A DNA stretch of 64,000 nucleotides from an uncultured Candidatus Rokubacteria bacterium (GTDB lineage Bacteria > Methylomirabilota > Methylomirabilia > Rokubacteriales > CSP1-6), in contig CAVVEU010000014.1 of assembly GCA_963747235.1 (NCBI GenBank), forward strand, positions 96,001-160,000, in the 5' to 3' direction. A model generated the notes under the pieces. That model ran no database searches. It was not told where the DNA came from and worked only from the letters and a program-made list of their open reading frames with translations. How positions within the stretch are numbered: the first letter of the stretch is position 1; each line of letters starts with the position of its first letter. Made by a program: the position numbers and the translations under genes. Positions 7,076 to 47,247 of this stretch are shown in pieces.

Positions 7076-7160
<85 letters not shown>

Positions 7161-43278: not shown

Positions 43279-43479
43279 ATGGCTCAGGGCAACGTGAAGT
43301 GGTTCAACGACGCGAAGGGGTACGGGTTCATTTCCCAGGAGGATGGCGAGGACGTGTTCGTGCATTTCAGCGCCATTCAGGCCCAGGGCTTCAAGAGCCT
43401 GGCCGAGGGCGATCGAGTCGAGTTCGAGGTCACCCGGGGGCCGAAGGGTCTCCAGGCCGCGAACGTCCGCAAGGTCTAA
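43279..43479 (+). CDS. Cold-shock protein
   Basis: [22 protein letters not shown]. Confidence 0.97.
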
Positions 43480-43769: not shown

Positions 43770-43973
43770 ATGGCACAGGGCACGGTCAAGTGGTTCAACG
43801 ACGCAAAGGGGTACGGGTTCATCCAGGTCGAGGGCGGAGAGGATGTCTTCGTCCACTACAGCGCCATCCAGGCCCAGGGCTTCAAGAGCTTGGCCGAGGG
43901 CGACAAGGTCGAGTTCGAAGTGACGAAGGGGCCCAAGGGGCTACAAGCTTCCAACGTTCGGAAGTCGGCGTAA
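43770..43973 (+). CDS. Cold-shock protein
   Basis: [22 protein letters not shown]. Confidence 0.97.
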
Positions 43974-43991
43974 GCGTCGCCGACCACTTGA

Positions 43992-44030
43992 CGGCCCGCC
44001 GGGGAGATCCGGCGGGCCGTTTCTTTCTCT
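43992..44030 (+). terminator. Intrinsic terminator after csp2
   Basis: GGCCCGCCGG...CCGGCGGGCC followed by TTTCTTT. Confidence 0.75.
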
Positions 44031-44054
44031 CGCCCCGTCCCGACAGATCCCGAC

Positions 44055-44260
44055 AGAAAAAAGAACCCCGACGGATGCTGCGGCGGCAGTCTTGCGCTTC
44101 CGCTGCCGTGCCGCCCCGCTGGTGAAGAGCGGGTCCGTCGGGGCCGGTGGTTCCTGGGTCCTCCAGGGCCACCTGCAACTGCTACTTCGGGGCCTTAGGA
44201 GGCGACCACCTCACAGATCACCGTAGGGGTACACATCGGCTGGATCACCTCCCTTTCTCG
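44055..44260 (-). ncRNA. Putative structured RNA / micro-mRNA antisense to the 16S rRNA 3' end
   Basis: Plus strand ACCGTAGGGGTACACATCGGCTGGATCACCTCCCTTTCT resembles 16S helix 45 plus anti-SD; multi-hairpin 3' domain closed by CCCCGACGGA/TCCGTCGGGG and a U-tract. Confidence 0.6.
44195..44236 (-). CDS. 13-aa micro-ORF MCTPTVICEVVAS behind an extremely long SD
   Basis: AGAAAGGGAGGTGATCCAGCCG directly precedes the ATG; TAA at 44195-44197. Confidence 0.5.
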   Translation of the reverse strand: MCTPTVICEVVAS

Positions 44261-44441
44261 GCGCGGCCCATCCTGGGCCCAGGACCCGCTCACCTCGCTC
44301 CGGACGCCGACTCCCGGCGGGAGGCTCGGTCACGTTGCTTCCGGCGAAATTGCCGGAAAGGAACGCTCAAAGGAGCCTGTGTTCGCTCCGACCGATTTCG
44401 GGGTCATCGTACATGAGGCCGACGCGGCGGGAAAGCATTTT

Positions 44442-44738
44442 TCACTTCACGACGATCCGCCCCGCGTTCTTCTCGATCACGCCCTTGCCGACGCCGTCGA
44501 CCTTCTCCAGATCCTGCGCCTTCTTGAACGGCCCATGGGCATCCCGGTACTCGATGATCTTCTGCGCGCCGCCCGGGCCGACGCCCGCGAGCTTCATGAG
44601 GTCCGCCTTCGACGCCTCGTTGATGTTGACCTTGCCCTCCGCCTTGGCCTTGGCGGGCTTGTCGTCCGCCATCACCGCGCCCCCGCCGAGACACCACATC
44701 GCCAGCACCACCGCCCCCAGCCATCGCGTCGTCTTCAT
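44442..44738 (-). CDS. ComEA-like helix-hairpin-helix DNA-binding protein
   Basis: Signal peptide; VNINEAS..L..L.GVG..A.KIIEYR..GPF. Confidence 0.9.
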   Translation of the reverse strand: MKTTRWLGAVVLAMWCLGGGAVMADDKPAKAKAEGKVNINEASKADLMKLAGVGPGGAQKIIEYRDAHGPFKKAQDLEKVDGVGKGVIEKNAGRIVVK

Positions 44739-44840
44739 TACCCACTCTCCTCCTGGAATTGAGATGAGCTGCTGACGCGATTCCACGCCGCGGGACGCGG
44801 GCGGTCAATGCGGACAATTTCAGACGGGCGGGTGTATCTA

Positions 44841-45145
44841 CTATTCGGCGGAGGGGTCGAGCGTATCGAGGTAGGCCTGCCACTCCCAGACGAGCAGCGA
44901 TTGCTTCCTGGTGTTGCAGTCCTTGCACGCGGGCACCATGTTGGCGCGGATCGAGCGGCCGCCCCGCACGAGCGGCACCACGTGGTCGAGGGTCAGGGCC
45001 TTCGCGCCGACCGCGCGCCGGCAGTAGTGGCAGAGGCCCGGCGCGACGCGCCGCCGCCACCACGACGTCTGGCGGAGCTCGCGCGCCCGCGCCTTCTCGC
45101 GGCGCAGCGTGTCGTCGTCGACCTCGCGCGTGTAGCGATCCTCGC

Positions 45146-45149
<4 letters not shown>
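44841..45149 (-). CDS. Small HNH endonuclease
   Basis: CHYC...LTLDHVVPLVRGG...NMVPACKDCN. Confidence 0.88.

Positions 45150-47247
<2,098 letters not shown>

Follow-up and report, generated by a model that had tools for sequence, protein, structure and literature searches.

What is a near-complete complement of the 16S ribosomal RNA (rRNA) 3' end doing in non-coding DNA, and which strand of it is used? The question is raised by a locus in the window, a stretch of 64,000 nucleotides (nt; C14:96001-160000) from an uncultured Candidatus Rokubacteria bacterium, in which an earlier note, made from the letters alone, had pointed to an unusual element (C14:140055-140400; positions below are those of the window unless a contig is named). 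The element is a predicted stand-alone, conserved and structured small RNA gene on the minus strand. Its central feature is a pair of complements to the ribosomal anti-Shine-Dalgarno (anti-SD) sequence placed at equal spacing, one from the start and the other from the stop of a short open reading frame (ORF). The parts of this arrangement are the following.

44237-44258, minus strand: SD1, 22 nt complementary to the 3' tail of the 16S (one bulged G), invariant in 49/49 relatives except for one A/G position.
44195-44236, minus strand: mini-ORF MCTPTVICEVVAS, 13 codons plus TAA, with its geometry kept in 49/49 relatives and 119/121 motif matches.
44206-44215, minus strand: SD2, the invariant UGUGAGGUGG, codons Cys-Glu-Val-G.., which was part of the search pattern.
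44216-44222, minus strand: GGUGAUC box inside the ORF, a lineage-restricted anti-SD complement (predicted duplex with the 16S tail of -13.2 kcal/mol).

The plus-strand sequence quoted earlier for 44213-44258 was read back identically, and the claimed likeness to the 16S 3' end was recovered with the 16S of the same genome (87% identity over 38 nt, BLAST). The only small-subunit (SSU) rRNA gene of the genome lies on the minus strand at C14:58059-59619, about 82 kb from the element. An Rfam scan showed the stretch to be otherwise free of rRNA-like sequence, as had been stated, the flanks of the element are unrelated to the internal transcribed spacer, and the SSU model gave no match in the stretch, placing the element outside the 16S genes and pseudogene fragments. 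An exact 16-mer common to the element and the 16S tail is the longest exact tail complement in the 5.57-Mb genome, the rRNA gene excepted. Other tail complements of 13-15 nt (contigs C4, C11 and C3) look like chance occurrences, apparently within coding sequence as judged from their flanks.

On the minus strand, the 22-nt "super-SD" described in the earlier note is present with one bulged G and is followed by an ATG at 44234-44236; compared with the 16S tail of this very genome, as the note had proposed, it is complementary to nearly all of the tail that is single-stranded. The predicted duplex of SD1 with the 16S tail reaches -38.5 kcal/mol, the corresponding values for the upstream regions of five neighbouring genes being -11 to -17 kcal/mol. 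The additional GAGGUG/GGUGAU boxes claimed before were found at 44206-44215, 44216-44222 and 44289-44296 (minus strand). Besides SD1, a second box, within the frame, has a predicted duplex with the 16S tail of -18.3 kcal/mol, and a third, at 44216-44222, one of -13.2 kcal/mol; three separate anti-SD complements fall within 50 nt.

The frame is kept among relatives, which extends the earlier observation of a 13-residue ORF with a TAA stop at 44195-44197. In an alignment of 49 sequences of relatives (A1, from which L060 of genome G040, incomplete at its 3' side and carrying a large insertion, was left out), an ATG or GTG start lies 8-9 nt after GGAGGUG in 49/49 cases, and the frame has 13-15 codons ending in CEVV(A/T/I/P)S, with the exception of L036, which has Asp for the second Val; the stops comprise TAA, TAG and TGA. 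A public collection with one genome per species was then scanned with a motif in which the SD core and the UGUGAGGUGG box alone are specified, and neither start nor stop, and at least 120 loci carrying 121 motif matches were obtained. Among the matches listed, 119/121 have a start 5-11 nt past the SD core (ATG 68, GTG 41, TTG 10) and a stop exactly six codons after the UGU of UGUGAGGUGG (TAG 99, TAA 11, TGA 9), encoding 83 distinct peptides in frames of 12-17 codons. The GAGGUG of SD2 ends 9 nt before the stop, and this distance, which was not in the search pattern, is likewise kept in 119/121 matches. The two exceptions, L062 and L063, are without any other family feature, and their number is, by estimate, about the chance expectation for the motif. 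Since the SD core and GRUCCAG were fixed by the pattern, their presence in every retrieved subtype is by construction; the purine-rich flank of SD1, absent from the pattern, was nevertheless seen in all subtypes by inspection, unquantified. The 49 sequences and the 120 listed loci overlap in part (L046 and L066 are one contig), and their counts are kept separate.

What is selected is a frame with a set start and stop, plus the RNA sequence of the second box, and not a particular peptide. Residues before the Cys vary freely and Cys-Glu-Val is kept in 119/121 listed matches. In the sequences inspected by eye, indels in the frame are multiples of three. The three invariant codons are never changed synonymously, and Cys is UGU although the genome, with a GC content of 70.7%, uses UGC for 92% of its Cys codons (UGU 8%). 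The retention of UGU despite the preference for UGC places the constraint on the RNA and not only on the peptide. As to the stops, TAG and TAA account for 110/119 listed mini-ORFs and the nine TGA are mostly in acidobacterial and Nitrospira types; stop usage in the long ORFs of the genome is TGA 59% and TAA 6%. A preference of the mini-ORF stop for release factor 1 is possible.

Conservation, which the earlier note had named as a check, proved extensive. A DNA search found a single-copy locus in 58/61 genomes (the genome itself plus 60 relatives, drawn from five of the order's families, the unpublished G029 being counted) at 72-97% identity, the conserved block comprising about 220-290 nt of non-coding DNA. 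Across the phylum, the exact motif is present in 168/251 genomes (with the unpublished G029, G094, G135 and G243) and in 81/104 high-quality ones, and a reversed-motif control gave 0. By family, it occurs in f1 (132/158), f4 (18/21) and f8 (13/15), and it was not found in f6 (0/2), f7 (0/21), f10 (0/6), f11 (0/2), f12 (0/1) and f13 (0/20). The genomes listed have one copy each except G013, in which two inverted copies of the RNA gene lie about 2.4 kb apart (G013:C9:872221-872488 and 874875-875097, the locus also listed as L156).

The at least 120 listed loci are titled Rokubacteria/Methylomirabilota, Binatia, Acidobacteriota, Nitrospirota and Actinomycetota, and further Deltaproteobacteria, Thermodesulfobacteriota and Myxococcales; cultured actinobacteria of the genera Pseudonocardia, Jiangella, Nocardioides and Aestuariimicrobium are among them. 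Each group has its own sequence subtype, and subtypes were counted rather than labels, some labels of metagenome-assembled genomes being clearly unreliable. In L171, L097, L087, L114, L105 and L149 the RNA subtype, and in some cases the neighbours too, are those of Rokubacteria or Binatia despite other titles, and the titles on odd loci include the archaeal Nitrosocosmicus, Deferrimicrobiaceae, Gemmatimonadales and Enterobacteriaceae; this suggests mis-binned contigs or wrong labels. Motif-free profiles built from the order of the window found 41/80 other loci with the 5' domain and 50/80 with the 3' domain, including Binatia- and Delta-labelled types; among the same 80 loci, neither profile matched the actinobacterial, acidobacterial and Nitrospira-type loci, L104 or L117. 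As the profiles reach only some types, a long form, that of the window, and shorter forms exist.

The long form comprises the following parts.

44056-44400, minus strand: whole RNA gene, about 345 nt, delimited by the conservation block and the covarying structure, with predicted ends (3' at the U-tract).
44406-44411, minus strand: putative -10-like hexamer in conserved columns, TACGAT here and TAGGAT in relatives.
44260-44399, minus strand: 5' domain of the long form, with hairpins inside and 3 compensatory pairs in helix 14-19/82-87.
44064-44145, minus strand: terminal multibranch with an 11-bp stem (44135-44145/44064-44074) and two enclosed hairpins, 100% paired, 3 compensatory.
44056-44065, minus strand: U-tract 3' of the closing stem, from sequence and alignment.

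The extent given by the earlier note, 44055-44300, covers a real element but is too short, as conservation and structure reach about 44400. The -10-like hexamer lies 6-8 nt upstream of a conserved AAAUCGG start. The 5' domain is closed by UCGGUC (44390-44395) with GACCGA (44326-44331) and includes a GGAGC-loop-GCUCC hairpin at 44371-44388. The hairpins, multibranch and U-tract reported before are present, the closing stem being one or two bases off the earlier coordinates. A terminator scan of the locus detected the csp terminator alone; a simple scan of this kind leaves the U-tract unscored because the closing stem encloses a multibranch.

RNAalifold predicted 74 pairs for A1, 21 of them with compensatory changes. 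In a curated structure of 60 pairs, the share of paired cells is 98.6%, whereas shuffles give 94.2% and sliding the partners lowers it to 34-52%, and 15/60 pairs are changed on both sides, which was matched by 0/500 shuffles. At several pairs, most or all sequences of the alignment have G-U, which on the plus strand would turn into an A-C mismatch; this fixes the minus strand as that of the predicted RNA. Single-sequence folding only modestly beats shuffles on either strand (z about -2.2), so that it is covariation which carries the case for structure. The covariation, the G-U pairs, the terminal stem and the U-tract support the proposal of a discrete minus-strand transcript, here a predicted structured RNA.

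Within this structure, the SD boxes have potential internal partners.

44198-44203, minus strand: GCCUCC, an anti-SD-like sequence in the last two codons, which can pair with SD1 (minimum free energy (MFE) fold).
44146-44151, minus strand: 3' box ACCACC, which can pair with the GGUGGU of SD2 (helix 219-224/296-301).
44121-44125, minus strand: UCACC, in the loop of a hairpin, a possible partner of the GGUGA of SD1 (column-pair scan: 5 stacked, 1 compensatory).

In the order of the window, the SD1/GCCUCC helix (166-171/226-231) is 99.7% paired without compensatory change, the SD2/ACCACC helix has one compensatory pair only, and UCGGCG in the 5' domain is a potential partner of the 5' flank of SD1. 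Covariation for such a partnership comes from 17 actinobacterial and similar copies, where the helix between SD2 with the ORF end and the 3' box has 169/170 cells paired over its first 10 pairs and two pairs that are compensatory in 8/17 sequences each; its covariation score of 0.246, against 0.087 in shuffles, was reached by 0/500 of these. Two extension pairs added to this helix pair poorly (5/17 and 11/17). Rfam draws an alternative helix between SD1 and the ORF end, 96% paired but with one-sided changes only; the two helices are mutually exclusive.

The actinobacterial copies link the element to a named family. Five of them score 90-111 bits with Rfam RF02471 (Ms_IGR-5), and one Binatia-labelled short-form copy scores 46.7 bits (cut-off 45). 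The copy in the window does not reach the 45-bit gathering score, while the core of the family (a purine-rich flank and GGAGGUG.UCC, then after about 20-30 nt UGUGAGGUGG) is found at 44206-44258 on the minus strand. Because the Rfam model misses it, the window copy is filed as an Ms_IGR-5-related variant and not as a scored member; it appears to be a longer, non-actinobacterial relative of that family. Both share the purine-rich flank with GGAGGUGGUCC, and in the actinobacterial copies examined a start codon follows GGAGGUGGUCC after 8-9 nt, as in the RNA of the window. The Ms_IGR-5 frame has 12 codons with UGUGAGGUGG and its stop six codons after the UGU, the same stop geometry. Both also appear to stand alone in the genome and to have a long terminal hairpin preceded by a CACC-type box, for which pairing with the ORF end is predicted in the window copy. 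The window copy differs in an extra 5' domain of about 140 nt, in its 3' box (ACCACC against CAGUCACC in Ms_IGR-5) and in its occurrence in a lineage labelled Methylomirabilota/Rokubacteria. In the actinobacterial loci (L078, L084, L137, L140 and others), a TAnnnT -10-like box would put the start about 12 nt before SD1, at ACAC; in the long form, ACACAG lies in the loop of the first hairpin instead.

The claim of the earlier note that no described system has this layout holds in part: the actinobacterial homologues are a known Rfam family, and a literature search brought up no description of the long SD, of the mini-ORF or of a function for Ms_IGR-5. Homologues of MS_IGR-5 are reported to carry significant ribosome footprints in Mycobacterium abscessus and M. 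smegmatis (PMC4974804), one was validated by RNA-seq in Streptomyces lividans (PMC8079986), and another is a small RNA (sRNA) transcription unit in S. avermitilis (PMC8780764). IGR-5 of M. smegmatis, located between MSMEG_5794 and MSMEG_5795, starts at +1A, is capped with nicotinamide adenine dinucleotide (NAD) and is called "validated but yet uncharacterized" (bioRxiv 10.1101/2021.12.14.472595); the putative start of the actinobacterial short form fits this +1A. Ms_IGR-5 was also detected in a cold-stress study, the relevant text of which is silent on its regulation (PMC10454040). In the passages cited here, Ms_IGR-5 is treated as a non-coding sRNA of unknown function.

Given the extraordinary SD and the conserved mini-ORF, a ribosome-related role is the natural reading. 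The explanation favoured here, and regarded as moderately probable, is that of an RNA with a translated mini-ORF, whose two SD-like boxes would alternate between the anti-SD of the ribosome and internal mimics of it. At rest, the RNA would be paired with itself. The 30S subunit would displace the internal partner by pairing the 16S tail with SD1, possibly entering from the purine-rich flank; the MFE fold of the single sequence leaves this flank unpaired, but it lies beside a conserved long-range helix. The ribosome would then translate the short frame and, at the stop, unwind the helix between SD2 and the 3' box, so that the shape of the RNA would switch with ribosome loading and termination. 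The output of the switched state might be the stability of the RNA itself, a target in trans or the ribosome pool.

Several results weigh against this explanation or its connection with Ms_IGR-5. The strict consensus scan gave no sigma-70 promoter at the locus, and the 5' end is therefore a predicted one. The SD1 and SD2 helices show hardly any variation in the order and are pairing-compatible only. Full pairing of SD1, as seen in the MFE fold, would agree just as well with an ORF that is usually silent. When SD2 was tested by energy against the sequence downstream of it, the result was better than in shuffles (<=5/100 as good) in only 8/54 sequences, i.e. 5/6 acidobacterial, 2/15 actinobacterial, 1/2 Nitrospira-labelled and 0/31 others; with so few passes, reliance was placed on covariation instead. 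A search of 43900-44500 with RF02471 at E up to 10 gave no match, so that the case for homology is built on the core and the architecture that the two have in common; convergence on the 16S tail, which is universal, is conceivable in place of homology. The RF02471 search of the whole genome gave five weak matches elsewhere and none at the locus, and in the Rfam scan of 43900-44500, with E up to 10, all matches were weak and to unrelated models, with a generic terminator-like hairpin at their head.

Stabilisers of messenger RNA (mRNA) of the SD type offer a parallel. In STAB-SD of the Bacillus thuringiensis cry mRNA and in the hbs mRNA of B. subtilis, which a strong SD protects, an extended complement of the 16S 3' end holds the ribosome or the 30S subunit (PMC4113751, PMC5737220), as would be the case here, yet there the element stabilises a downstream coding message, whereas the RNA of the window has no downstream gene, a complement about twice as long and a second SD fixed relative to the stop. 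With SD1 about 140 nt from the predicted 5' end, followed by a conserved start and by no downstream message, the element does not class as STAB-SD-like. In Staphylococcus aureus icaR, a distal C-rich box pairs with the SD region of the same RNA (PMC3868564), similarly to the pairing predicted here; unlike icaR, a normal regulator mRNA, the partners in the window flank a 13-codon frame in a stand-alone RNA.

The short frame with alternative helices and the internal SD-like box near the stop also recall two classes of regulatory element. Leader-peptide attenuators have a short translated frame whose occupancy chooses between alternative helices, and programmed frameshift sites have an in-frame SD-like box; such a box lies at a fixed distance from the stop. 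Unlike these, the window shows no downstream gene, evident terminator/antiterminator, slippery site or extended frame, and the genes that follow the RNA are convergent cold-shock domain (CSD) genes, which sets it apart from a leader-peptide attenuator.

The 16S 3' tail is among the most conserved functional sequences in biology, and here a predicted stand-alone RNA is built around a near-complete complement of it. The RNA occurs in cultured actinobacteria as well as in lineages of soil and groundwater whose labels cover at least five phyla. The Ms_IGR-5 family is extended far beyond its annotated range, and the conserved layout provides a testable hypothesis for this family, whose actinobacterial members are expressed and ribosome-associated with no assigned function. 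Tractable hosts carrying Ms_IGR-5 are available in Streptomyces and M. smegmatis.

How much of the 16S end is engaged bears on a bolder version of the ribosome-related role. The earlier note had proposed pairing with helix 45. A complement of the helix-45 5' strand does exist in f1 and in Binatia- and Delta-labelled types, at matching offset, and in part in the Nitrospira type, but it is absent from f4, actinobacteria and acidobacteria; moreover, the conserved CGG(U) in f1 also pairs intramolecularly with GCCG around the start codon. Being lineage-specific, and with CGG(U) also explained by an internal helix, invasion of helix 45 cannot be the general mechanism of the family. In the lineages that have it, the match at the correct offset is apparently too good for chance, and an origin of the RNA from an antisense copy of the rRNA 3' end is for this reason possible. 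An ancient multi-phylum RNA, possibly born in this way, which captures 30S via the entire tail (in some lineages together with the helix-45 5' strand) and cycles the subunits through a dummy frame, is doubtful as a whole. If it exists, such an RNA could gauge or throttle the pool of translation-competent 30S, for example in slow growth or dormancy, or could alternatively proofread the maturity of the 16S 3' end, the stop of the dummy frame being held by the second SD.

A related alternative dispenses with translation. The RNA would be a sponge for 30S or the 16S tail, or an antisense RNA, that sequesters, protects or checks 30S or pre-30S, its ORF being translated incidentally. The 22-bp predicted duplex of SD1 suits such a role, as do the closely spaced anti-SD complements, the helix-45 complement where it occurs, and the -65.3 kcal/mol predicted when all 48 nt of the stretch are set against the final 47 nt of the 16S. 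A sponge, however, needs neither an SD-spaced start, nor a frame proof against indels, nor a stop at fixed distance for which all three stop codons are used; the helix-45 complement is lacking in the three groups named, and its bases would probably sit in the mRNA channel at initiation. The sponge is held to be unlikely.

If translation matters, the peptide itself might be the product: a signal, a cofactor precursor or an arrest peptide of 12-17 residues with conserved Cys-Glu-Val, made in large amounts thanks to the strong SD. The fixed distance from Cys-Glu-Val to the stop would suit an arrest peptide in the exit tunnel, and the ORF with this tripeptide is present in nearly all listed matches (119/121). 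Against this stand the 83 distinct peptides with free residues before the Cys, the three conserved codons that are never synonymous even with UGU as a rare Cys codon, and the lack of modifying or export genes conserved next to the locus, which make a peptide product quite improbable. The RNA is not of the type of a type I toxin mRNA either, having 12-17 codons that include a conserved Glu and vary freely at the N-terminus; no search was made for an antisense partner.

The translated mini-ORF RNA with alternating boxes would act as a unit of its own, and the neighbouring genes bear on this point.

43279-43479 and 43770-43973, plus strand: two tandem CSD genes of 66 and 67 aa, convergent with the RNA.
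44442-44786, minus strand: HhH (ComEA-like) gene, upstream of the RNA on the same strand.
44841-45197, minus strand: small HNH gene, upstream of the RNA on the same strand.
45202-47247, minus strand: ABC-F gene, upstream of the RNA on the same strand.

The RNA lies about 40 nt downstream of the HhH gene on the same strand with no terminator between them, and the order ABC-F, small HNH, (HhH/ComEA-like), RNA recurs in many Rokubacteria-type loci, so that a cis element of a neighbouring transcript, either a 3' untranslated region of the ABC-F/HNH/HhH genes or a leader-peptide attenuator, might be supposed. This is very improbable. Downstream there is no gene on the same strand, the csp genes being convergent, and upstream the RNA has a conserved -10-like box; other families and phyla have different neighbours, and homologues are reported as independent transcription units (PMC8780764). 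Only Rokubacteria-type loci have the order; in family f4 the HhH gene is missing and the RNA follows directly on the end of the HNH gene. The downstream neighbours are convergent in other families too, and the ORF lists of other phyla, with their high GC content, were too noisy for naming neighbours.

That the 87% identity to the 16S 3' end reflects a fragment of decayed rRNA, a chimeric assembly or a helix-45 decoy on the plus strand, the last an alternative of the earlier note, is a negligible prospect, since the same single-copy locus in 58/61 genomes and covarying helices unrelated to rRNA rule out fragment and chimera, the SSU model matches the true gene only, and the many G-U pairs, which would become A-C mismatches on the plus strand, together with the orientation of the Rfam matches, contradict the decoy.

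The two CSD genes face the element, as the earlier note had observed. Each has its own upstream region, and a strong intrinsic terminator (43990-44021) follows the second. The link to cold shock that had been drawn from them did not stand: they are local synteny, and as the gene order is confined to Rokubacteria-type loci, the cold-shock neighbourhood is not evidence of function. A functional link between the HNH gene and the RNA was rejected for the same confinement of the arrangement. ABC-F proteins are ribosome-binding factors. The ABC-F gene of the window is apparently split: its 681-aa ORF has good ABC_tran and ABC_tran_Xtn matches in the second half only, and an overlapping 582-aa ORF in another frame (45437-47185) holds the apparent Walker B region of the first ABC-F domain. 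In relatives the gene is one ORF, and the split may be due to a pair of frameshifts or to an assembly error.

Parts of the stretch are held by 20/24 sequencing runs listed, from which no conclusion on habitat or expression was drawn; the six listed metatranscriptome runs contain shares of 0.28-0.50 of the sampled words, which were not used as evidence of expression. The sole Rfam match in the stretch at the gathering threshold is a transfer RNA gene on the minus strand at 7079-7160.

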